64,000 nt of DNA from an uncultured Alphaproteobacteria bacterium (GTDB lineage Bacteria; Pseudomonadota; Alphaproteobacteria; Rs-D84): contig CALXXY010000003.1 in assembly GCA_944392815.1 (NCBI GenBank), positions 20,096 to 84,095 of the forward strand. Reading direction: 5' to 3'. Both the position numbers and the translations under genes were made by a program. Under the pieces are notes generated by a model. The model searched no databases. It saw only the letters and a list, made by a program, of their open reading frames with translations, and was not told the DNA's origin. How positions within the stretch are numbered: the stretch's first letter is position 1; each line of letters begins with the position of its first letter. This document shows, piece by piece, positions 3,368 through 54,267 of this stretch.

Positions 3368-5455
3368 ATGGCAAAAAAATTGGACCAAGCAACCAAATTA
3401 CTGATTGATTCATTACCGGAAAATCTGCAAAAATTGGCCACAACCGCGGTCGAGATTGGCTATTTATCCAAAATGGATTTTGATGCCGCCACCGAAGCGG
3501 ACGAAGTCCCATCGGACGAACAGGACGAAGTTCTGGATTTTTTTCAACAGGATTTAGGCCTGGAAATTTTGGAAACAGATAATTTTGCCCAAAATATTAA
3601 CAAATACTATGACGACGATTCCGACGAACAGCAATTGGACAAAACCCGCAATCTGTTAAATGCGGACGCCGAACAGGTCGACGTCAACGATGACGATTAC
3701 GAACACTATGCCAAACAATTGGAACGCAGCCAAACGGGCAATCTGGTTCTGGGGGTCCAGGATTCAGTTCAATCATATTTGAAACAAATCGGCACAGTGC
3801 AATTATTAACCGCCGCAGGCGAGGTTGCCATCGCCCAACGTATCGAGGCCGCGTCCCGCCTGATGGTATACGGTCTGTGCGAAAGCCCGATGACTATCCA
3901 GGCCATGTTGGATTGGTATCAACAATTATTAAATGACGACATTCGTCTGCGCTATATCGTAAATTTGGAAGTAATGTATTCCAGCGACGCGGAACAAAAA
4001 TCTTTGGCCGCGATTTCTGAAACATTAAAATCCAAGGGCGTCGAACACGTCGACGAATTGGACGATGACGACCTGGACGATCTGGAAGAATCCACCATGT
4101 CCGACGATGACGACGACGAAGAAGATGACGACGATGAAGAAGATGGTATCAAAAAAGAAGATACCCCGCGTGGTACATCTGGCGTTCCAATCCCAGTAAT
4201 GGAAGAAGCGTTAATGCCGATGATGATGGAATTATTCGGCAAAATTAAGCGAATATTCAACAACATGCAAAAATTACAGGCCAAACGTCTGGAAAATCTG
4301 GAAACATCGTCAAAACCAGACGACGCACTGGAAAAGAAATATAACAAAATGCGCCTGGAATTGTTTGAACACGTCAGCAAAATCCGCCTGAACGACGATC
4401 GTATCGCTGAAATTTTGGAACAATTAACCAAACGCGACCAGTTGTTAATGGGGCTCGAGGGTAAATTACTGCGCCTGGCCATGGCCAACAAAATCAAGCG
4501 CGAAGATTTCCTGGCCGAATACACCGGCAACGAAATCAATCGCAATTGGGTCAAAAAATTAATGCGCAGCAAAAACCCAACCTGGGCAAATTTTGCAAAA
4601 AAACATGAAAAAGATATTCTGAAAATCCAACAGGATATCACCGCCATTGCAATCGAAACAGGCCAGCCAACCGCCGAATATAAAAAGGTCGTCGAATTGG
4701 TTCGTCGTGGCCAGGCCGAAGCCGCCCGTGCAAAACGCGAAATGATCGAGGCCAACCTGCGTCTGGTTATCAAATTCGCAAAAAAATCCAGCAACCGCGG
4801 ATTGGGACTGGACTTTTCCGATTTGGTCCAGGACGGCAATATTGGTCTGATGAAGGCCGTTGATAAATTCGATTATCGTCTGGGCAATAAATTTTCAACA
4901 TACGCCACCAACTGGATTCAACAGGGCATTTCCCGCAGCATAGCGGACCAGGCCCGCACAATCCGCATTCCTGTGCATATGATTGATAATATCCACAAAA
5001 TCCAGCGCGCCACACGCCAATTCATGCACAAATATGGCCGCCAGCCCACACCCGAAGAATTATCAAAAATCATCTATCTGCCGGTGGACAAAATCCACAA
5101 AGCATTAAAAGTTAACCTGAAACCAATATCACTCGAGGCCCCCGTCGGAACCGAGGACGACAGCAGCCGCATTGAAATCATCGCGGACGAAACGGCCAAA
5201 AATCCGTTTGTGTCGGCCGCCCAGAAAAACCTGCGCAAAATCGTCACGCAGATTCTGTCGGAACTGGACCCCAAGGAAGAAACTGTTCTGCGTCAGCGTT
5301 TCGGTATGAGCACCAACAAAACCAGCACCCTGGAAGAGGTTGGCGAATACATCGGCGTCACCCGTGAACGCATTCGCCAAATTGAACAAAAGGCGTTGCA
5401 GAAACTGAAACACCCGACACGCGCACGCAAACTGCGCAGCTTTCTGGAAGATTAA
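3368..5455 (+). CDS. rpoD: RNA polymerase sigma-70 factor RpoD with acidic D/E-rich insertion
   Basis: Regions 2-4 are conserved (DLVQDGNIGLMKAVDKFDYRLGNKFSTYATNWIQQ; region 4 HTH at the C-terminus). ATG at 3368 has an AAGAAGGG RBS. Confidence 0.95.
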   Translation: MAKKLDQATKLLIDSLPENLQKLATTAVEIGYLSKMDFDAATEADEVPSDEQDEVLDFFQQDLGLEILETDNFAQNINKYYDDDSDEQQLDKTRNLLNADAEQVDVNDDDYEHYAKQLERSQTGNLVLGVQDSVQSYLKQIGTVQLLTAAGEVAIAQRIEAASRLMVYGLCESPMTIQAMLDWYQQLLNDDIRLRYIVNLEVMYSSDAEQKSLAAISETLKSKGVEHVDELDDDDLDDLEESTMSDDDDDEEDDDDEEDGIKKEDTPRGTSGVPIPVMEEALMPMMMELFGKIKRIFNNMQKLQAKRLENLETSSKPDDALEKKYNKMRLELFEHVSKIRLNDDRIAEILEQLTKRDQLLMGLEGKLLRLAMANKIKREDFLAEYTGNEINRNWVKKLMRSKNPTWANFAKKHEKDILKIQQDITAIAIETGQPTAEYKKVVELVRRGQAEAARAKREMIEANLRLVIKFAKKSSNRGLGLDFSDLVQDGNIGLMKAVDKFDYRLGNKFSTYATNWIQQGISRSIADQARTIRIPVHMIDNIHKIQRATRQFMHKYGRQPTPEELSKIIYLPVDKIHKALKVNLKPISLEAPVGTEDDSSRIEIIADETAKNPFVSAAQKNLRKIVTQILSELDPKEETVLRQRFGMSTNKTSTLEEVGEYIGVTRERIRQIEQKALQKLKHPTRARKLRSFLED

Positions 5456-5463
5456 CAACCACA

Positions 5464-5494
5464 AATCCCGCCACCTTTGCGGGATTTTATTTTA
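5464..5494 (+). terminator. Rho-independent terminator after rpoD
   Basis: Stem atcccgcc/ggcgggat followed by a T run. Confidence 0.7.
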
Positions 5495-5510
5495 ACCAAA
5501 TGGACACAAA

Positions 5511-6206
5511 ATGAACAATGGACATATGATAGCAATCGAAGGCACCGACAAAGCAGGCAAACACACCCAGGTTATGAAAATTCTGGAATATCTGCGCGCG
5601 CATGGCATCGCGGCCGAAACACTGGATTTTCCGCAATACAATGCGTTTTTTGGCCGCATGGTGCGTGATTATCTGAACGGCAAATTCGGCGCCACGCGTG
5701 ATTTACCGGCCGAATACACTATGTTGCCATACGCCCTGGACCGGTTGCAGCACCAGCCCAAAATCGCCACATGGTTGCGCGACGGCAAATGGGTAATTTT
5801 GGACAGATACACATACAGCAATTCTTTTTCTGTTGCGAAATACCCACGCGAACAATGGCCAGACAAAATAAAATTTATGGAAGATTTAGAATTCAACCAA
5901 CTGGGCATAATCAAACCCGATTACAATATATATTTATACCTGGATCCGCGCATATCATACAACATGCGCCACACAGGATTAAAACAATATCAAAACGGCC
6001 GCCCAGACATTCACGAAAGCGATTTTAAATTGCTGTACGATGTATCAAACGTATACAAACAAATCGCGACATCAAACCCAACAACATGGACAGTTGTGGA
6101 CGAAATGCGTCCCGACGGCACCCGCATGGGCATTGACGAAGTATTTTCGCACCTGACCCCGGTGATTGATAAATTAATCACCACCCACAACACAAAAATA
6201 CGTTGA
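5511..6206 (+). CDS. Thymidylate kinase-like P-loop nucleotide kinase (divergent)
   Basis: P-loop IAIEGTDKAGKHTQ and a DRY motif (ILDRYTYS) typical of the dTMP kinase family. Otherwise divergent. Confidence 0.55.
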   Translation: MNNGHMIAIEGTDKAGKHTQVMKILEYLRAHGIAAETLDFPQYNAFFGRMVRDYLNGKFGATRDLPAEYTMLPYALDRLQHQPKIATWLRDGKWVILDRYTYSNSFSVAKYPREQWPDKIKFMEDLEFNQLGIIKPDYNIYLYLDPRISYNMRHTGLKQYQNGRPDIHESDFKLLYDVSNVYKQIATSNPTTWTVVDEMRPDGTRMGIDEVFSHLTPVIDKLITTHNTKIR

Positions 6207-24225: not shown

Positions 24226-24410
24226 TTGGTGCGCGACGCGAGGATACCCGACTCACACCAACCCAAACGTATTTCTGGTGCGGGCGAAGGGAATCCGAAC
24301 GATTAAGCACCCGACGCGCGCCGTTATTAGGCGCAAGTCGTTGGTGCGCGACGCGAGGATACCCGACTCACATCAGCCCAAATAAATCTCTGGTGCGGGC
24401 GAAGGGAATC
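24226..24410. repeat. Imperfect tandem duplication (about 115-bp period) carrying a 20-nt copy of the tRNA-Gly 3' end
   Basis: ttggtgcgcgacgcgaggatacccgactcaca (32/32 identical) ... tggtgcgggcgaagggaatc (20/20) occurs at 24226-24295 and again at 24341-24410. The second copy runs into the real tRNA. Confidence 0.8.
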
Positions 24411-27755: not shown

Positions 27756-27846
27756 TTCTTGTTTTTATTGAAGTCAATGGGGACATTGTTTTCGGGACCT
27801 AGAAAATCCTGTAAGTATACACCCTGGAAGAAAACAAACACTGCTA

Positions 27847-28032
27847 TTGTCGTATGATTATATTACTATCGCACAGGATGCCTGTTCAGATGGCTATATA
27901 TCCGCCGGTACAGCCACCAGTTGCCTGGCACCCAATCCGGGCGGTTCGTGCATAATGTACGCCCCGGTGGGCGTATCGTATACAGACGCCACCGGCACAT
28001 ATGAATTCGAACAACCCTGCGCCATGGAATAA
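27847..28032 (+). CDS. Small Cys/Gly/Thr-rich hypothetical protein (61 aa); homolog of the 47922-48272 product
   Basis: C-terminal TGTYEFEQPC matches SGTFVYDQDC in the second ORF, with third-codon-position differences. Weak RBS. Confidence 0.4.
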   Translation: MSYDYITIAQDACSDGYISAGTATSCLAPNPGGSCIMYAPVGVSYTDATGTYEFEQPCAME

Positions 28033-28042
28033 AATACAAACC

Positions 28043-28303
28043 GTCGCGTTCTAAAATGCCCACCGCCACCGGGTCCCGCGCAAACATAGTTTGCGTGGGT
28101 GGTTCCAGGGCGGGGGGGGGGGTGACGGTCGTCAGACCGTCGGGGGGTGGAGCACAATGACCACCCCATCGCAGAACAAAGTTCCCCTCTACGGAGGGGT
28201 GGCACGTAGTGCCGGGGTGGTATCCCGCGCCATTGGCGCGGACAACATCTACACTCTACACTCTAAACTCTATTATTCCCGCGCCGATGGCGCGGGAATA
28301 ATA
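28043..28303 (+). repeat. Repeat element copy A: 114-nt structured G-rich core plus hairpin module(s)
   Basis: About 97% identity with 48328-48441 over the core (28055-28167). Followed by several small hairpins and one 14-bp-stem hairpin (tattattcccgcgcc gatg gcgcgggaataata) that abuts the tolA stop codon. Confidence 0.85.
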
Positions 28304-36964: not shown

Positions 36965-37189
36965 ATGTCGCATTGGGTAAAAACAATTGTTGCCACATTC
37001 GCTATTTTTCAACTGACGCCATTATTTGCGGCAGAAACGCAGCAAATTGCATCGGTTTCATATGTTAACAAAATAACAGATGAATTGGATACCAAGGTTG
37101 ATATGGGATCAGCCCAAACAATATCCGGGGAAAAAACTTTTTCAGCCAGTCCGTTGGTTCCAACTCCACCATTACCACAGGATTTATAG
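36965..37189 (+). CDS. Small secreted hypothetical protein
   Basis: Signal-like N-terminus MSHWVKTIVATFAIFQLTPLFAA. Stop abuts the next gene start. Confidence 0.35.
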   Translation: MSHWVKTIVATFAIFQLTPLFAAETQQIASVSYVNKITDELDTKVDMGSAQTISGEKTFSASPLVPTPPLPQDL

Positions 37190-38994
37190 TGTTCAAAAAA
37201 ATCTGTGCCGCCATACTTGCAATATTTTTAATACTGCCAAATGTTGCAATCTCGGCGGAAATGGTAAATGTTGAATACGTTCACAATATCCTGCGTTGGC
37301 GCTGGGGAATTGATTTACCATATAATACAAACCTGACAAATCCTCATGTCGCTGCAAATATGAAATATTTGTTAACGGTTGTTGATATTGCAAACAAGCG
37401 ACTGAATGGTAAACAAACAACAGATTATGGCAACAGCGACTACGCCACACTGGCGGCGGCGGACACAGTTGCCACGAACACAGCGATTGACACATTGGTT
37501 CGTGGGCCTGGATTTTATTTGACGACCACTCCAGATACGACGAATTTTTCAATTACTATTACCGCCGCTGGAACTTTTGCAATTGATTGGGGTGACGGGG
37601 AACGCGAATCCATTGTCGATAAACCAGTTGCCGCAACAACATACTCTCACACATTTAAAACCCCGCAATCACACACAATTCGCATAACTGGCACCGCCAC
37701 AGATTACAGCGATGCCAACAACGTCAAAACATTATCTTTTAATAACAACACTGCTATTGCCAGAATTAATGGCAACCTGGGTTCTATATTTCCAACACTA
37801 TCGGACGGGACAAATCCGCGTTTTACCGAATTGTTTAACGACGCGACCAATTTGACGGGCGAAATTCCATCAGATTTATTCGACGGCATTACCGGTGCAG
37901 CAACGACATATATGTTCGGCAGCTTGTTTCGCAATTGCTCGAAATTAACGGGCGAAATTCCCGCCGATTTGTTTGCGGGCATCACAGGCCCATTGGCCCA
38001 AGGTACATTCGAAGCATCTTTTTATAGTTGCAGTGGACTGTCCGGCAGTATTCCTGGCGAATTATTTTCACGCATAACCAGCGACACACATGAAGTTTTA
38101 TTTAATCAAACCTTTCGCGGTTGCACTGGATTATCTGGTTCAATTCCCGGTGATTTATTCCAGGGTATCCGTGGCACGCCACGACGTGCAATGTTTTTTG
38201 CCGCATTCCGTAACTGCAGCAACATAACGGGTTCAATCCCAGGCGAATTATTTGCCGGCATCCAGGGCGCGCCAGCAACTTCTGTATTTGCCGAAACATT
38301 TGCATACACGGGACTAACTGGTTCTATTCCCGGCGAACTGTTCTCGGGCATCCAGGGAGCACCAGCCCATCAATTATTCAGCTATACATTTGCTGGTAAT
38401 CGCAGATTAACCGGTCAAATTCCAGGTGAATTATTTGCAGGCCTCCAGGGTGCACCAGCCCCATATGTATTCTCGAATACTTTTGTTCAATGCAGCGGCC
38501 TTGATAATCATATCCCAGCCGACCTGTTTGCGGGCATTCGTGGACAACCAGCCGAAGGAATGTTTGAGAGAACATTCAATGATGCCGGTGTAAGTTCAAT
38601 ACCCGATGGCTTGTTTGCTGACATCCAGGGTGAACCCGCGAACTTTATGTTTGAATCAACTTTTAACTGGAACCCAAGGTTAAACACAATTCCAGATGGT
38701 TTATTTGCTGGAATTTCTGGATCTCCGGCAACAAACATGTTTAGCAATACGTTTAATTATACGAGTATAACAAATATCCCAGACAATTTGTTCGGCACAT
38801 TCACAGATAACCCAGCGAATGGTATGTTTACCAGCACATTCGCCAATTGTCAAAACCTGACGGGACCATCTGCCAAAAATGGCGACGGCCGCTATCTGTA
38901 CGAGGTATTCACAAACATCACATCTGATATGAACACATACGCAAATTCACCAAATTTGTCGGATTACGACCAAATTCCAAACAACTGGAAATAA
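37189..38994 (+). CDS. Secreted protein with about 13 tandem 31-aa LRR-like repeats (C.SxLTGxIPxxLFxGIxGxPA)
   Basis: Signal peptide MFKKICAAILAIFLILPNVAISA. Repeats are evident at both protein and DNA level (they produce spurious minus-strand ORFs). Confidence 0.6.
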   Translation: MFKKICAAILAIFLILPNVAISAEMVNVEYVHNILRWRWGIDLPYNTNLTNPHVAANMKYLLTVVDIANKRLNGKQTTDYGNSDYATLAAADTVATNTAIDTLVRGPGFYLTTTPDTTNFSITITAAGTFAIDWGDGERESIVDKPVAATTYSHTFKTPQSHTIRITGTATDYSDANNVKTLSFNNNTAIARINGNLGSIFPTLSDGTNPRFTELFNDATNLTGEIPSDLFDGITGAATTYMFGSLFRNCSKLTGEIPADLFAGITGPLAQGTFEASFYSCSGLSGSIPGELFSRITSDTHEVLFNQTFRGCTGLSGSIPGDLFQGIRGTPRRAMFFAAFRNCSNITGSIPGELFAGIQGAPATSVFAETFAYTGLTGSIPGELFSGIQGAPAHQLFSYTFAGNRRLTGQIPGELFAGLQGAPAPYVFSNTFVQCSGLDNHIPADLFAGIRGQPAEGMFERTFNDAGVSSIPDGLFADIQGEPANFMFESTFNWNPRLNTIPDGLFAGISGSPATNMFSNTFNYTSITNIPDNLFGTFTDNPANGMFTSTFANCQNLTGPSAKNGDGRYLYEVFTNITSDMNTYANSPNLSDYDQIPNNWK

Positions 38995-47001: not shown

Positions 47002-47122
47002 GCGCACCCCCAACGAATAAAAAAATTCAACTCGCCACACTACGTTAAAACTTCGTGTGGCACTCCTTTGCGTTAAACGTTCCGCTTCGGCTTGCCACCC
47101 GAAGCGTCACGGACGCAAAGGG

Positions 47123-47142
47123 TGGTCGGGGCGACAGGAATC
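47123..47142. repeat. 20-nt duplicate of the tRNA-Pro 3' end (tggtcggggcgacaggaatc), about 200 bp downstream of the gene
   Basis: Identical to 47320-47339. Homology stops exactly where the T-loop sequence begins. Confidence 0.8.
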
Positions 47143-47319
47143 CCTCGCACGGTGCCTGGGCACCGGCTGCGGGGCATTCGTGACGATTTGGCCACACTAC
47201 GTTTGCCAAATCTACTCATTGTCGAACCACGGCATGCATTGCATGCAACGCCGATTTCGTTATACCCACAAACATGAATAAAAATAACATCTCTCTGCGA
47301 TTGATATTATTTTTATTCA

Positions 47320-47396
47320 TGGTCGGGGCGACAGGAATCGAACCTGCGACCCCTTGCACCCCATGCAAGTACTCTACCAGGCTGAGCTACGCCCCG
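47320..47396 (-). tRNA. tRNA-Pro (anticodon GGG)
   Basis: Reverse complement CGGGGCGTAGCTCAGCCTGGTAGAGTACTTGCATGGGGTGCAAGGGGTCGCAGGTTCGATTCCTGTCGCCCCGACCA, 77 nt. Confidence 0.85.
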
Positions 47397-47895: not shown

Positions 47896-47923
47896 AAAAT
47901 CCGCCACCCGGCGGATTTTTATT
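47895..47923 (+). terminator. Terminator after acpS
   Basis: aaaaaatccgccacccggcggattttta. Confidence 0.75.
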
Positions 47924-48272
47924 ATGGCTGATATCTGCAATCCTGATCATATACAAACGTGCCACTGGGTTCAATAAACGGGTCATTGGATTGCGCATAG
48001 CAGGCGGCAATGCCGTTTATGCCCGTTCTGGAATGAACCACAACAAATGGATTCCCAACAATCACAGGCACAGTCCCCGGAATTTCGAATCCGATCTCGC
48101 CATTAACCCCGGCACCCAGGCAACAACTGATTGTCGTGCCTTCGTGCCCAACCCTCACACTATATCCGGCATATCCGGACGTGTTGGGTATTGCGGCAAC
48201 AGTTTCTGTAAAGTTTCCATTTGTACCGCATTTATATATTGTGCCACACGGTTCGGGGAATGGGATCGCCAC
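47922..48272 (-). CDS. Small Cys/Gly/Thr-rich hypothetical protein (116 aa, GTG start); homolog of the 27847-28032 product
   Basis: C-terminal SGTFVYDQDCRYQP vs TGTYEFEQPCAME in the other ORF. Cys spacing is conserved. Confidence 0.4.
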   Translation of the reverse strand: MAIPFPEPCGTIYKCGTNGNFTETVAAIPNTSGYAGYSVRVGHEGTTISCCLGAGVNGEIGFEIPGTVPVIVGNPFVVVHSRTGINGIAACYAQSNDPFIEPSGTFVYDQDCRYQP

Positions 48273-48287
48273 CGCCCCATGTGATAT

Positions 48288-48706
48288 GTCGCGTTGGGGC
48301 AGTGGTATACGAACGGTGAAATATCAGAATGCCCACCGCCGACCGGGCCCCGCGCAAACATAGTTTGCGTGGGTGGTTCCAGGGCGGGGGGGGGGGTGAC
48401 GGTCGTCAGACCGTCGGGGGGTGGGGCACAATGACCACCCCGTCGCGCAAAGCGTGGCGATCCAGTAAATAAAAAAGTACTGCGGGCGAACGCCCGCAGA
48501 CATATTGCACTGGATTGCCACAGTCGTACGCCAACGTTTTCAACGTTGATCGTACTCCTTCGCAATGACAGGAGCAGAGTGGACATTATCTACACTCTAT
48601 ACTCTACACTCTTCACTCTATTATTCCCGCACCAGCGGGAATAATATAACTCTCCACTCTATTATTGTCACGCTGTGCGTGACAATAATATCACTCTGCG
48701 CGGGAA
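48288..48706 (+). repeat. Repeat element copy B: 114-nt structured core plus longer array of hairpin modules
   Basis: Core at 48328-48441. Hairpins include ctgcgggcg aa cgcccgcag, tattattcccgc acca gcgggaataata and tattattgtcacgc tgtg cgtgacaataata, with ACTCT-type short repeats between. Ends at the stop codon of the 788-aa gene. Confidence 0.85.
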
Positions 48707-48708
48707 AT

Positions 48709-51075
48709 TTATATCAATGGCGGGAAACAATCGCCCCCTGATTGTGGGCAACAATTAAATCCCATGTCGCCCATATCTGTATAAATCTCGCCTGGGCAAC
48801 AGCCATTCACATCGGGCGCACTGCCGTCTGGACACGCCGGCAAATTTGATGGAACTTCTTCCTGCCACACAACGGACGTCACCGATTGCGGCACGTATTC
48901 ATCATTGGTCGCAACTGCGCCACCGCCAACATTCGTGGTCGCACCCGCCGTCACCACAGACGGCCCAGTCGTATCCACAGCCACCATATTTTCATTACGC
49001 AACGTTTCCGTATCGTAATTCGAATCGGCAACGAACATATTTTCATTCTGTGATACGTTGTACGCGGGCTTGCTGGCCAAAATATCCTCTTCGGATTCCA
49101 CAACAACTGATTCGGGTTCGCTGACCGGCACAGGCGGTGTCACATTCACCGATTCGATAACAACATCAGCGTCCTGGACAGGTTGCGGTTCCAACACAAC
49201 CGTTTCCGGTTCGGGCTGCGCCACAGGTTCCGGTTCACTGACCGGCACAGGCACAGGTTCTGGTTCGGGCTGTGCCACAGGTTCCGGCTCGTCTACAACG
49301 GGCGCCGGCACTTCGACAACAGCGGGCTCGACCACCGGGGCGGGCGTTTCAATTTCAGGTATAAACGGACTGTCGGCCGCATCACCGCTTTCATCAGTCG
49401 CGACATCAGCCACCTGGGCTGTTGGCACCGTTGTGGTTAAATCGGGCACCTGGTCATTGGTATTACGCTGATACAGCCACAATGTAAATATCGACAACCC
49501 GATCAATAATATCAACAACAGATAATACACAAACGTCGGCTTGCGCGGGGCAGGATTTGTCGGCGCAGCGGTCCCCGTTATTGGCGACACAGGGCGGGGT
49601 GCATTCGCACCGGCGGGTGCATTTACCGCCGGTGACACCGGTCGCGCCGCGGCACTGGCCGCTGGGGCGGGTGTCGGCATCGGATTTTGCATTCCCGCAT
49701 TATTCCCGGGCGCCGCCACACTATCGTCCGCAACCGGCGGCACCGGGGCGGGACGTACAGGTTGTGCGGGTTGAACTGGCTGTACAGGTTCAGTCGTATT
49801 CGCCCCCATTAATTCAGAATCCAATTGAACATTTGAATCCACATCATTCGGCTGGGGAATATCAACCGACGTAATCGTATCCAACACAGGCGCAGATTGT
49901 GGCACAGTGGGCGCAACATCGTCGTTCGTCACAGGCGTCACATTTATTGGTGCACTATCCCCAACCGGGGCGGGCGCCGCCGCGGGTTCAGATTGCGTTG
50001 GTGGCGTAAACGACAACGGTTTTTCATCAATCACACTGTCATACAAATCATCAGTCGACTGACCAGAATTTTCCACAGGACTGGACACACCGAATTCAAT
50101 CGGTTTAAACGCGATATCTTCGTCCATTATATCTGGATTTTTGTCGAACAAAGGTTGTACTTCGTCATTTTTCATTGTTTCGTCGGCCATATTTTCCGCC
50201 TTTGGTTCTGCTGTATTAAATTCAATTTCTTTGTCATATGTTATATCAGCGACGTCATTGTCATCATCAACATCGTCCACGTCATCATCATACGAAATAT
50301 TATACGACGTCACCACAGGTGCGTCCACAGATTCCGCCGGCATAACAACATTTTTCGCCGGCGCCACATTTGCGACCATGGTCGCGTCACTGGTTGCGGG
50401 GCGGGCCAAAATCTCGCGCGCGGCGGCGGCATCTTCATCAGCCACTATCAAACGCCGTTGTGCATTGGATAAACGTTTTTTCGCGCGACGCAATTTTTCA
50501 TTTGTCGCATCAATTTGTGCATCTGTCCGTAAAATTTTCGACGCAGATTGTTTTGTCGGCTCGCGCCCAACTTTCTTTTTTTGCTGTGATAACTGTGCCC
50601 GCAAAGAACGCAATTTGACCTGTAATTCATCGATAGTTTCACGCGCACGGGTAATGGTTTCGCGCGCCCGGTCAGCATTCGATTCCGCCATAGCCAACCG
50701 TTCAGCCGCAGCGCGCCGGACTGAATCCTCGCGAAAATGGGTTAATGCAACCAGCGCATCGGACAAATCAGCCCCATTTTCATACGCACGAATTAAATCG
50801 TCGTATTCCGACAGCCCGCTGTATTCAATATCCAACTTTTGATATTTATTATTTTTCTTTGGCCGCACAGTTTCCAAATCAACCCCATAATCATTGGCCA
50901 AAATATCGTCCCATTTGCGATCACCCACGGGATTAATCACCAACAACGCGTTAGGTTTGCGATTATCAACGGTATTATCCAACACGAACACCAATTTACC
51001 GTCCGCGTCATAATACGCCCGCAGCGCATTTCCGCCGATATTATATTCCCTGAATGTTAAAACAGAATTATCCAT
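48709..51075 (-). CDS. Large Pro/Glu/Val-rich membrane protein (unknown function)
   Basis: 788 aa: N-terminal globular and coiled-coil region, acidic stretch, one TM helix (FVYYLLLILLIGLSIFTLWLY), PEPV-type repeats, and a C-terminal Cys cluster (NGCCPGEIY...FNCCPQSGGDC). Confidence 0.5.
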   Translation of the reverse strand: MDNSVLTFREYNIGGNALRAYYDADGKLVFVLDNTVDNRKPNALLVINPVGDRKWDDILANDYGVDLETVRPKKNNKYQKLDIEYSGLSEYDDLIRAYENGADLSDALVALTHFREDSVRRAAAERLAMAESNADRARETITRARETIDELQVKLRSLRAQLSQQKKKVGREPTKQSASKILRTDAQIDATNEKLRRAKKRLSNAQRRLIVADEDAAAAREILARPATSDATMVANVAPAKNVVMPAESVDAPVVTSYNISYDDDVDDVDDDNDVADITYDKEIEFNTAEPKAENMADETMKNDEVQPLFDKNPDIMDEDIAFKPIEFGVSSPVENSGQSTDDLYDSVIDEKPLSFTPPTQSEPAAAPAPVGDSAPINVTPVTNDDVAPTVPQSAPVLDTITSVDIPQPNDVDSNVQLDSELMGANTTEPVQPVQPAQPVRPAPVPPVADDSVAAPGNNAGMQNPMPTPAPAASAAARPVSPAVNAPAGANAPRPVSPITGTAAPTNPAPRKPTFVYYLLLILLIGLSIFTLWLYQRNTNDQVPDLTTTVPTAQVADVATDESGDAADSPFIPEIETPAPVVEPAVVEVPAPVVDEPEPVAQPEPEPVPVPVSEPEPVAQPEPETVVLEPQPVQDADVVIESVNVTPPVPVSEPESVVVESEEDILASKPAYNVSQNENMFVADSNYDTETLRNENMVAVDTTGPSVVTAGATTNVGGGAVATNDEYVPQSVTSVVWQEEVPSNLPACPDGSAPDVNGCCPGEIYTDMGDMGFNCCPQSGGDCFPPLI

Positions 51076-53100: not shown

Positions 53101-54267
53101 ATGTTTTTACGACCAATCGTATTTTCTGTATTGTGCACATTCATCGGCATACACGGTGCGAATGCCCTGATGTGGAATGATCCGAATGTAAACCTTGTCC
53201 AAAGCGTATCTGATCACCGTTATCGTGACGCCAACACGGGTCGATATGTAAGTACCGCCGGAATGCCAGCGGTACCGCCAGTGGTCGGCAGCCCAACTGG
53301 TACTGGTACAGGCACCGGAACCGGTACTGGTACAGGAACTGGAACAGGTACGGGAACCGGTACTGGTACAGGCGCTGGAACAGGTACGGGAACTGGAACC
53401 GGTACTGGTACAGGCGCTGGGGCTGGTGGCGGTGGCACCGCCGGCAGAATTCGCACCAATTGGTCAAATATGTCACGTGGCGCACGTATCGGCACTGGGA
53501 TTGGTATCGTCGCTGGTACAGCGGGTGTTGTGACATCTGGCCTGGGGAACCAGGAACACGGTGCCGGCAACGTGGTTGGTGGCGCATTAAGTGGTGCCGC
53601 AGCGGGCGCCTCTGTTGGCAGTTTAATCGCCCCAGGTCTGGGTACTGCTATCGGTGCAGGTGTTGGCGCATTGGCCGGTGCATTGTACCCTGCGGCAAAG
53701 GTATTTTCCGAAACAGATTGCCTGCGCGATCCTGTCACCGGGGCATACACATGTTGCAATACCGCATTTAACAAAGGCGACCGCGTCGTTCCAATTGGCG
53801 GATTCATGTTCTGTGGCGCCGAAGATGGCTCGCAAAACACACCGTTCCAGGTACGTCAATGTCTGCAGGGCAAACCAAAGGACGAATCAACCTGGACCGA
53901 CCAGGGTAAAAAATGGTACGAAGGCGGCATGTGGGTTGATGATTTTTGGGCACCTGAATGCACGGTCAGATTTTGCAACACCGCCCCAACCCAGGGCATA
54001 GAAAATTATATTATACCGGTCCAGGACACAACAAATTTCTGTTGGGATTGGAAATGTATTGATGGATACGAACGTTCCGGGGACACATGTGTCATCGCGG
54101 GCGGTGGCGGCAACGGAACGACGGGTGGCGCACCGGTCACACCATATACAAATCCGACAAACCCGACCGCCGATCAATACGATGAATTAATCAAACGACT
54201 GCAATTGCAACGCCAATTAATATTGCAGGAATGCGGTTATATGGTGAACACACAAAACCAAAATTAA
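53101..54267 (+). CDS. Secreted protein with (Thr-Gly)n dipeptide repeat, glycine-zipper segment and Cys-rich C-terminal domain
   Basis: Signal peptide. About 22 TG/AG dipeptides encoded by an imperfect GGTACN 6-bp tandem repeat (53299-53435). Confidence 0.45.
   Translation: MFLRPIVFSVLCTFIGIHGANALMWNDPNVNLVQSVSDHRYRDANTGRYVSTAGMPAVPPVVGSPTGTGTGTGTGTGTGTGTGTGTGTGTGAGTGTGTGTGTGTGAGAGGGGTAGRIRTNWSNMSRGARIGTGIGIVAGTAGVVTSGLGNQEHGAGNVVGGALSGAAAGASVGSLIAPGLGTAIGAGVGALAGALYPAAKVFSETDCLRDPVTGAYTCCNTAFNKGDRVVPIGGFMFCGAEDGSQNTPFQVRQCLQGKPKDESTWTDQGKKWYEGGMWVDDFWAPECTVRFCNTAPTQGIENYIIPVQDTTNFCWDWKCIDGYERSGDTCVIAGGGGNGTTGGAPVTPYTNPTNPTADQYDELIKRLQLQRQLILQECGYMVNTQNQN
53299..53435 (+). repeat. Imperfect hexanucleotide tandem repeat (GGTACN, about 22 units) inside a CDS
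   Basis: ggtactggtacaggcaccggaaccggtactggtacaggaactggaacaggtacg... read directly from the sequence. Confidence 0.85.

Follow-up and report, generated by a model that had tools for sequence, protein, structure and literature searches.

Silent donor copies of variable genes are known from Neisseria (pilS, found with a G-quadruplex, or G4, element) and from Anaplasma (msp2 pseudogenes). Among short bacterial repeats, the described systems closest to the locus treated here are the repetitive extragenic palindromic (REP) sequences and bacterial interspersed mosaic elements (BIME) of enterobacteria and pseudomonads, together with the Rickettsia palindromic elements (RPE), the Correia elements of Neisseria and the miniature inverted-repeat transposable elements (MITEs). 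The DNA under study is a 64-kb stretch (contig CALXXY010000003.1; hereafter the window, which is also the extent to which the genome of this strain was covered) from a genome of Candidatus Enterousia, a gut-dwelling and uncultured member of the alphaproteobacterial order Rs-D84. The Candidatus Enterousia are gut bacteria of this order with genomes of ~0.75-1.0 Mb (PMC12306168). At two places in the window, locus A and locus B, a short open reading frame (ORF-A and ORF-B, respectively) lies beside a copy of a palindromic repeat element.

At a probability of about 0.78, the two loci are hypervariable islands in which REP/BIME-like repeats travel with gene cassettes and probably mediate their loss, while the two open reading frames (ORFs) are relics of two families, designated p92 and p200. 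Lineage-specific genes for secreted Cys-rich proteins, present in many copies, would sit in strain-variable islands within a nested mosaic of GC-rich hairpins, especially 3' of p92. The loci of relatives used for comparison (L-numbers) amount to ~608 kb in total and were all ascertained via the proteins.

Origin of the two open reading frames

Both ORFs are present exactly as the first-pass annotation of the window had given them, in coordinates, strand and length. The same annotation had regarded them as members of one small-gene family, a view that the profile comparisons overturn. ORF-A matches the profile of the p92 family (alignment A3) with 103 bits (E 2.5e-33, hmmsearch), at profile positions 35-92 only, as a truncated p92; ORF-B is a truncated p200, matching the p240 branch of that family (alignment A5; p240 being a 202-246-aa group, P0122-P0128, inside p200) with an hhalign probability of 86% (E 5e-6). 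The features concerned are as follows.

27847..28032, plus strand: ORF-A, 61 amino acids (aa), TTG start; a putative chimeric pseudogene.
27817..27860, plus strand: 44-nucleotide (nt) remnant of p148, the first gene of the cassette, encoding YTLEENKHCYCRMI in the p148 frame.
28033..28054, plus strand: conserved 3' flank of the p92 subfamily, AAATACAAACCGTCGCGTTCTA, the same after p92 in L001, L002, L003 and L092.
47922..48272, minus strand: ORF-B, 116 aa, GTG start; the 5'-truncated C-terminal half of a p200-family gene.
47896..47921, no strand: terminator-type hairpin bordered by an A-run and, on its opposite side, a T-run; it separates the convergent acpS and ORF-B.

The p92 proteins are Cys-rich, 92-96 aa long, and begin with a leader (MKRIIxLxLAIAPxxAFAA) and a first PSTSCPSGY motif; they are carried by 76 loci in Candidatus Enterousia and related alphaproteobacterial metagenome-assembled genomes (MAGs), at ~7-13 copies per MAG. 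In almost every locus, p148 (~148 aa, likewise with a signal peptide) stops 13-15 nt short of p92, so that the pair forms a two-gene cassette. Intact p92 genes are under purifying selection, with ratios of nonsynonymous to synonymous substitution rates (dN/dS) of 0.17-0.31. Members of the p200 family are 200-260 aa long, with an N-terminal hydrophobic leader (MxKxxxxxYMIAA) and a C-terminal signature CY..D.[ST]G.[FW].Y..C. The intact proteins would be exported, disulfide-bonded and under diversifying pressure. A mobile-element origin of p92 was also considered. Viral contigs (IMG/VR), phages (GenBank) and plasmids (PLSDB) contained no match to p92, which leaves descent from a phage or plasmid unsupported.

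Two cassettes in relatives deserve separate mention. In L004, positions 5218-5682 (minus strand) hold a real p148-type gene with the signal peptide MKISKQFLLAGAVLCAITTTGAHA, directly upstream of p92, and the public gene call there (5333..5782, plus strand) is on the wrong strand. In L070 (Ca. E. excrementavium), p148 and p92 form one continuous frame (1709-1972), built from the C-terminal part of the former and the 3' half of the latter, and the fused cassette is followed by linker, hpB (a hairpin module described below), linker and element. As this decayed cassette again lies next to the element, the pairing of broken cassette and element is recurrent.

The truncation of ORF-A can be followed nucleotide by nucleotide. 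From 27856 onward it corresponds to p92 codons 35-92, i.e., to the last 58 codons of a 92-aa protein, and its first three to four codons, including the TTG "start", are out-of-frame p148 debris; its homologues form 117 clusters, nearly all of 92-96 aa. The 44-nt p148 remnant is 97.7% identical to L001 5798-5841 (blastn) and retains 13 of 14 p148 residues by tblastn; it derives from the middle of p148 and is the sole part of that gene left in the window. In L001 and L002, whose flanks (pfk and a tonB-like gene) are 97-98% identical to the window, an intact p148+p92 cassette stands between these two genes. The L001 segments 5322-5797 and 5842-6102 are missing from the window, and the deletion junctions show microhomology (AT/TAT and GATTA). 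Neither the p92 leader nor the first PSTSCPSGY motif was found in any of the three frames upstream of ORF-A, which is left without promoter, ribosome-binding site (RBS), start codon, signal peptide and first Cys motif. The terminator of pfk lies ~100 nt upstream, with no promoter-like site between it and ORF-A. Downstream, the 22-nt flank at 28033..28054 also has a close variant in L070. Since the p92 leader region is deleted relative to L001, ORF-A is a truncated p92 and not an intact member; it would be a pseudogene, an accidental open frame left by a double deletion.

ORF-B required deeper searches: close homologues by word search numbered only four, and the p200 family was found through exhaustive HMMER and a search seeded from a weak tblastn match (L025). 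With ORF-B as query, exhaustive HMMER gave P0129 (E 1.6e-16) and seven more matches at E ≤1e-10, the best of these seven being P0001, ORF-B's own 97%-identical homologue. The alignment always falls on the C-terminal half of 171-260-aa proteins (from residue ~97 in P0129). ORF-B has other residues at two conserved Cys positions, and leader and promoter are gone. In L004, ORF-B is preceded by a good RBS and an ATG encoding MNKINKLLYMIAG, a p200-type leader, which is out of frame with ORF-B, with ~78 codons missing; in the window, the element stands where L004 keeps this leader. The breakpoint is the 11-mer CCACCGCCCCA, common to the p200 remnant (TCGCCACCGCCCCAcc in L004) and to the element side (AATGCCCACCGCCCCATGTG in L070 and L088).

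The substitution pattern agrees with decay. ORF-B and its counterpart in the closely related L085 differ by 13 nonsynonymous and 4 synonymous changes (dN/dS 1.03), against dN/dS of 0-0.23 for the neighbours acpS, corA, adk and a 788-aa gene in the same comparison (Fisher p = 0.0015; 5.6e-5 against the three housekeeping genes alone). ORF-B evolves neutrally. A p200 remnant at a third locus (L083 vs L086) has a dN/dS of ~0.96, a value based on four substitutions only. The candidate explanation that ORF-B is an intact short gene, suggested by its 97% conservation in another assembly, was rejected on account of the full-length family, the dN/dS of ~1 and the out-of-frame leader of L004.

The first-pass annotation had further observed that the C-termini of the two ORFs align. 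The observation stands for a motif of ~25 residues, C-[YI]-x(8-12)-[ST]-D-x-[ST]-G-x-[FYW]-x-[FY]-x(2-4)-C-x(3,4)-end; direct pairwise similarity is weak (BLASTP E = 0.033, 4 of 17 residues identical). With ORF-B left out of the profile of p200 C-termini, p92 members reach a median of 10.6 bits against a shuffle 99th percentile of 5.4 (only 0.04% of shuffles reach the real median), and among all ORFs examined 70 of 96 matches to the motif expression lie at the very C-terminus. The motif also occurs in a 214-aa ORF of L038 and a 251-aa protein of L063. These scores argue for a genuine shared motif, above composition. It is too short to prove common descent of p92 and p200. The p92 profile gives ORF-B 9 bits, and hhalign aligns the two families over 12-23 columns only (P 0.002-0.008, probability 5-14%), the alignments of 13-23 columns having P 0.002-0.003. 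The related argument for protein-level conservation, that codon differences concentrate at third positions, does not hold, as the 10-codon motif differs at codon positions 1, 2 and 3 by 1, 5 and 6 changes, with two synonymous pairs only. The reported lack of a signal peptide is correct for both ORFs as drawn and fails for their families, since full-length relatives of both have leaders; the leaders are missing because both ORFs are 5'-truncated.

These results bear directly on the possibility that ORF-A and ORF-B are functional paralogous small proteins whose expression is controlled or supported by the adjacent element. Both frames are open, they have the C-terminal motif in common, and ORF-B is open in three strains. 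This explanation is nonetheless highly improbable: the start of ORF-A is out-of-frame debris, and a 97-98% identical strain has the promoter, RBS and signal peptide that ORF-A has lost; ORF-B has a dN/dS of 1.03, two lost cysteines, no leader and a terminator-like hairpin upstream; the two come from different families; promoter-like sites are not above chance; and where ORF-B lies in the window, the close strains L089 and L090 have another remnant. Neither ORF looks functional in the window, as far as its sequence can tell, and the small-gene-pair finding dissolves into two pseudogene fragments.

Repeat modules and their association with the genes

The two repeat copies (28055-28172 and 48328-48446, both on the plus strand) are 96.6% identical over 119 nt, and their 38-nt core matches the window twice, against 0 expected in shuffles. 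Each ORF lies within 60 bp of a copy, as had been reported; the distances of 10 and 15 nt given for them are to be corrected, as the sequence shared by the two copies begins 22 nt downstream of the ORF-A stop and 55 nt away from the start of ORF-B. The repeats and the modules around them are laid out as follows.

28055..28176, plus strand: element copy A, consisting of linker AATGCCCACCGCC, hairpin HP1, G-run G11, hairpin HP2, GGGGGGTGG and CACAATGACCACCCC.
28075-28099, 28112-28122 and 28124-28141, plus strand: HP1, G11 and HP2 (GACGGTC/GACCGTC), respectively, within copy A.
28177..28221, plus strand: right half of module M1, with GTTCCCCTCTACGGAGGGG, GGCACGTAGTGCC and GGGGTGGT.
28222..28303, no strand: palindrome CCCGCGCCATTGGCGCGG, ACTCT-type repeats and the perfect hairpin TATTATTCCCGCGCC/GGCGCGGGAATAATA.
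48269..48327, plus strand: module hpB, a 59-nt unit of hairpin CCACCGCCCC..GGGGCAGTGG and spacer.
48328..48446, plus strand: element copy B, with the architecture of copy A.
48443..48572, no strand: module M2, a long nested palindrome GCGATCCAGT..ACTGGATTGCC..CGCAATGACAGG.
48590..48702, no strand: ACTCT repeats, hairpin TATTATTCCCGCACC/GCGGGAATAATA (48619-48646) and one 61-nt unit.
~48646-48702: the 61-nt unit in single copy, with hairpin TATTATTGTCACGC/GCGTGACAATAATA; it forms direct repeats around the cassette in L088, L089 and L090.

Individual modules recur in relatives in comparable settings. M1 is also found after p92 genes in L007, L010, L012, L032, L042 and L088; the 28222..28303 block, whose hairpin TATTATTCCCGCGCC/GGCGCGGGAATAATA (28271-28303) abuts the convergent tonB-like gene, is common to L001, L002 and L092; hpB is >90% conserved in L070, L083, L085 and L088; and M2 occurs after p92 in L004 and L088 and after the core in L088. 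The first 11 nt of hpB are the junction with the p200 remnant and overlap the GTG start of ORF-B. ACTCT-type repeats and an AT-clamped GC palindrome are common to the two loci farther 3'. The element is thus a single combination of modules (linker, hpB, HP1, G-run, HP2, M1, M2, ACTCT repeats and AT-clamped palindromes) that reappear, differently assorted, beside these genes.

Folding around copy A is far stronger than in shuffles on both strands (z = -7.1 and -6.8), which is what palindromic sequence would lead one to expect. G-runs of more than 6 nt occur in the window just twice, as the G11 tracts at 28112-28122 and 48386-48396, both inside element copies; in other strains the corresponding run is G6-G8. 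With its neighbouring G-tracts, the G11 strand has a composition of G-quadruplex type and could be prone to slippage. Searches of the whole window against Rfam 15 returned tRNAs only at the gathering score, and nothing credible to E 1 at either locus. The first-pass annotation had proposed that the element carries regulatory signals. No promoter or regulatory signal rises above chance: scans for promoters and terminators gave nothing above shuffled expectation except the pfk terminator and a terminator-like hairpin in M2 (48480-48499, minus strand).

Its claim of co-localisation, in contrast, is borne out. The window holds exactly two family remnants and two element copies, pairwise adjacent, and modules are found at only two loci of the 64 kb, both of which hold remnants. 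Across the related loci, modules are enriched 0-400 nt after the p92 stop (M2a in 33 of 48 matches, M1 in 9 of 12, ACTCT in 17 of 17), and a second module cluster lies just upstream of cassettes. The alternative that genes and repeats are cargo of the same unit, one of the two options that the annotation had offered, gains direct support: p92 and ~170 nt of its 3' array are common to the unrelated loci L002 (pfk/tonB-like) and L092 (ABC transporter/ClpB), and at locus B of close relatives, 61-nt direct repeats enclose a 1.15-kb cassette. Direct repeats of 20 nt or more on both sides accompany 8 of 67 cassettes (at 6 loci) and none of 67 controls. The annotation had read a functional association from this co-localisation, with the gene orientation flipped relative to a fixed repeat orientation. 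The co-localisation is real and not random, and the flip has a structural explanation: at locus A the element lies 3' of p92, and at locus B an 11-nt microhomology joins it to the p200 remnant, which has the opposite orientation, at the end where the gene has lost its 5' part.

Whether the element itself is an actively transposing, non-autonomous MITE-like unit with a preference for AATGCCCACCGCC-like sites, whose insertions caused the truncations, has to be weighed against this background. At three loci, near-identical strains differ in whether they carry the element (window vs L001/L002; L083 vs L086; window/L085 vs L004), and in L070 and L088 the 59-nt hpB is flanked by two 13-nt copies of AATGCCCACCGCC, in the manner of a target duplication. 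Moreover, the core is bounded by AATGCCCACCGCC and AATGACCACCCC, and the element encodes the N-termini of ORFs called at two p200 remnants (P0002 and P0133). Such a unit is conceivable but unlikely. No terminal inverted repeats are defined, and no transposase was identified in the 64 kb of this genome. Copies differ by whole modules, which points to mosaic reassortment and not to copy-and-paste: L070 and L085 lack HP1, which the window copies and L088 have, and three different hairpins occupy the HP2 position (GACGGTC/GACCGTC, TCGTGC/GCACGA and TCGCAC/GTGCGA), the latter two differing by compensating changes. Further, the core 24-mer has no match in GTDB representative genomes, and an hpB 19-mer found a single chance match in JGI metagenomes, on an unrelated high-GC contig.

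Probable turnover of cassettes at the two loci

Under the preferred interpretation of hypervariable islands, the present layout would have arisen by a few losses. At locus A, two microhomology deletions would have removed most of p148 and the 5' third of p92, leaving ORF-A. At locus B, recombination between the 61-nt direct repeats would have removed a whole cassette and left one repeat copy, and a microhomology deletion over 11 nt would have cut p200 to its C-terminal half and joined it to the element, leaving ORF-B.

The relatives provide the intermediate arrangement for locus B. In L088, the closest relative at this locus, full-length p200, element, M2, cassette and a second, partial M2 follow one another in this order, and the window layout may be derived from such an arrangement in two steps, the p200 deletion and the cassette recombination. 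In L088, L089 and L090, the 1.15-kb cassette has a 61-nt direct repeat on either side (97-98% identity between the two, at a spacing of 1154-1157 nt); the window keeps a single copy of the unit, as fits recombination between the repeats. In L004, L088, L089 and L090, a cassette stands where the window has the element. We infer that the repeats themselves promote such deletions and allele replacements.

Replacement of alleles is apparent at the same site. Over the ORF-B block (48253-47854), the window and L004 are 98-100% identical, although the adjoining acpS is only 64-82% identical, with a synonymous divergence (dS) of 1.1, and corA and adk have dS of 0.55-0.95. L089 and L090, whose flanks (acpS, corA) are 98% identical to the window, yet carry a different p200-type C-terminal remnant in place of ORF-B. 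The identity patch and the swapped remnant together make the site a hotspot of allele replacement. The cassettes at locus B diverge similarly: between L088 (2552-2989) and L089 (2549-2989), p148 shows 29 nonsynonymous and 5 synonymous changes (dN/dS 1.9), and p92 (L088 vs L089 3001-3279) reaches a dS of 0.63 though the flanks are ~97% identical, which suggests diversifying selection or allele swapping.

The same observations could be taken to mean that the truncated copies are silent donor cassettes feeding gene conversion into expressed p92 and p200 genes. The identity patch amid diverged neighbours, the exchanged remnant in L089 and L090, the differing alleles of near-identical strains, the confinement of G11 runs in the window to the two element copies and the retention of the C-terminal motif by the remnants would all be in keeping with it. 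Such a role is very unlikely, given that neither an expression site nor a donor-recipient mosaic is demonstrated, that ORF-A is a recent, untidy double deletion of a cassette intact in sister strains, and that the remnants drift neutrally. Ordinary homologous recombination between strains is sufficient to explain the identity patch, and does so equally well.

A more ambitious proposal holds that p148, p92 and their 3' array constitute a movable cassette and, with the remnants and the G-rich element, a recombination system that reshuffles secreted Cys-rich proteins. In relatives, the bounding direct repeats of palindromic modules measure 61-135 nt. We regard the proposal as quite unlikely; if true, it would represent a cassette-exchange or antigenic-variation mechanism new for the Enterousia lineage, in a genome of <1 Mb.

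Several points weigh against the interpretation as hypervariable islands with repeat-mediated loss. ORF-A and L001 differ by 3 nonsynonymous and 7 synonymous changes, and the resulting dN/dS of 0.12 is not a neutral pattern; the sample of 10 changes is too small, however, and the majority may have arisen before the deletion or belong to the functional lineage. Copy A is absent from L001 at the locus A site, where AATGCCCA, the first 8 nt of the linker, is retained; since L001 keeps these nucleotides, the element may be ancestral and lost in L001, instead of simply inserted in the window. More generally, the direction of change was read from comparison with relatives, without a rooted phylogeny. 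The unbiased test of association is the 64-kb window alone, and it is small, the other loci being protein-ascertained. Since long flanking repeats occur at just 8 of 67 cassettes, repeat-mediated excision is not general. Finally, ORF-A, ORF-B, p92, p148 and p200 match nothing above threshold in Pfam or NCBIfam; the AlphaFold2 model of p92 is too poor to use (mean predicted local distance difference test score, pLDDT, 47.6), and that of p200 (mean pLDDT 61.6, predicted template modelling score 0.51) finds no Foldseek match in the PDB at E <1.

Apart from the fate of two ORFs, the analysis brings to light an undescribed feature of Ca. Enterousia, gut bacteria that are widespread though uncultured, namely ~7-13 two-gene cassettes per MAG for small secreted Cys-rich proteins without known relatives. 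The islands of p92, p148 and p200 vary between strains 97-98% identical, with nested palindromic repeats at their flanks. In a bacterium that probably relies on other cells, families of this kind are candidate mediators of interaction with the host or with phages, and the repeats are candidate drivers of rapid cassette gain and loss. Caution is also advised in annotation: remnants of the ORF-B kind are called as genes in public assemblies, and at least one p148 gene is called on the wrong strand.

Further features of the window were noted on the way. A 20-nt copy of the tRNA-Pro 3' end (TGGTCGGGGCGACAGGAATC) lies at 47123-47143, ~180 nt from the tRNA gene (47320-47396), and L090 lacks exactly the 177 nt between the two 3'-end copies (47143-47319); the duplication has the appearance of a scar left by a small integrated element that targeted the tRNA. 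The surrounding segment (47034-47383) is 96-100% identical to the otherwise diverged L004. A tandem duplication at 24226-24410 (115-nt spacing, 91% identity), which includes the 3' end of tRNA-Gly(CCC), may be another scar resembling an attachment (att) site. Beside gcrA in all relatives stands the conserved 788-aa gene (48709-51075, minus strand). Its Pro/Ala/Val-rich product is hydrophobic in a central segment and rich in Cys at the C-terminus (ACPDGSAPDVNGCCPGEIYTDMGDMGFNCCPQSGGDCFPPLI); no Pfam domain scores above threshold in it, and the dN/dS is 0.15-0.23. Tandem repeats of GGTAC(T/A)GG type with a 12-nt period occur at 53271-53432 (in the ORF 53101..54267, 388 aa), and related GGTTC/GGCAC repeats lie opposite the 788-aa gene at 49106-49287; both are low-complexity coding repeats of Thr/Gly type. 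At 37849-38450 (in the ORF 37189..38994), repeats of ~93 nt encode LTGEIPxxLFxGI-type units of a 601-aa protein resembling leucine-rich-repeat proteins.

Comparison with described systems

In architecture and arrangement, the element resembles REP/BIME, in that short GC-rich imperfect extragenic palindromes are assembled into variable mosaics with conserved linkers. As in enterobacteria and pseudomonads, the units often lie between convergent genes or 3' of genes, differ between strains, have stable structure on both strands and are plausible substrates for deletion and recombination. In contrast, the sequences are unrelated to REP/BIME and find no Rfam match, and in the available data the Enterousia modules are nested in one another's loops and tied to the flanks of particular gene families.

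With RPE, Correia elements and MITEs, the repeats share palindromic units of 100-200 nt in small host-associated genomes, strain-variable insertion and deletion, sequence read into ORFs (the N-termini of P0002 and P0133) and the 13-nt duplication around hpB in L070 and L088. They depart from these elements in that neither terminal inverted repeats nor consistent target duplications are established, the copies are modular variants and not near-identical full-length units, and in-frame tolerated insertion into functional genes is not evidenced in the Enterousia loci.

The gene families, in turn, recall Anaplasma msp2/p44, Neisseria pilE/pilS and the variable lipoproteins of Mycoplasma through their many paralogues in a genome of <1 Mb, copies lacking a 5' end, allele replacement between strains, adjacent repeats and signs of diversification. 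They differ in having no expression locus or demonstrated gene conversion; the protein families are unrelated, and the Enterousia cassettes appear to be complete transcription units scattered round the chromosome. As for the proteins, Ephrin-receptor-like (GCC2_GCC3) and tumour necrosis factor receptor (TNFR)-type Cys-rich repeat proteins offer a last parallel. The families p92, p148 and p200, as well as ORF-B, differ from these in matching no Pfam or NCBIfam model, whereas the 251-aa motif protein of L063 has Ephrin_rec_like repeats (E 2e-12) and the repeated CPSGY motifs of p92 are of similar flavour.

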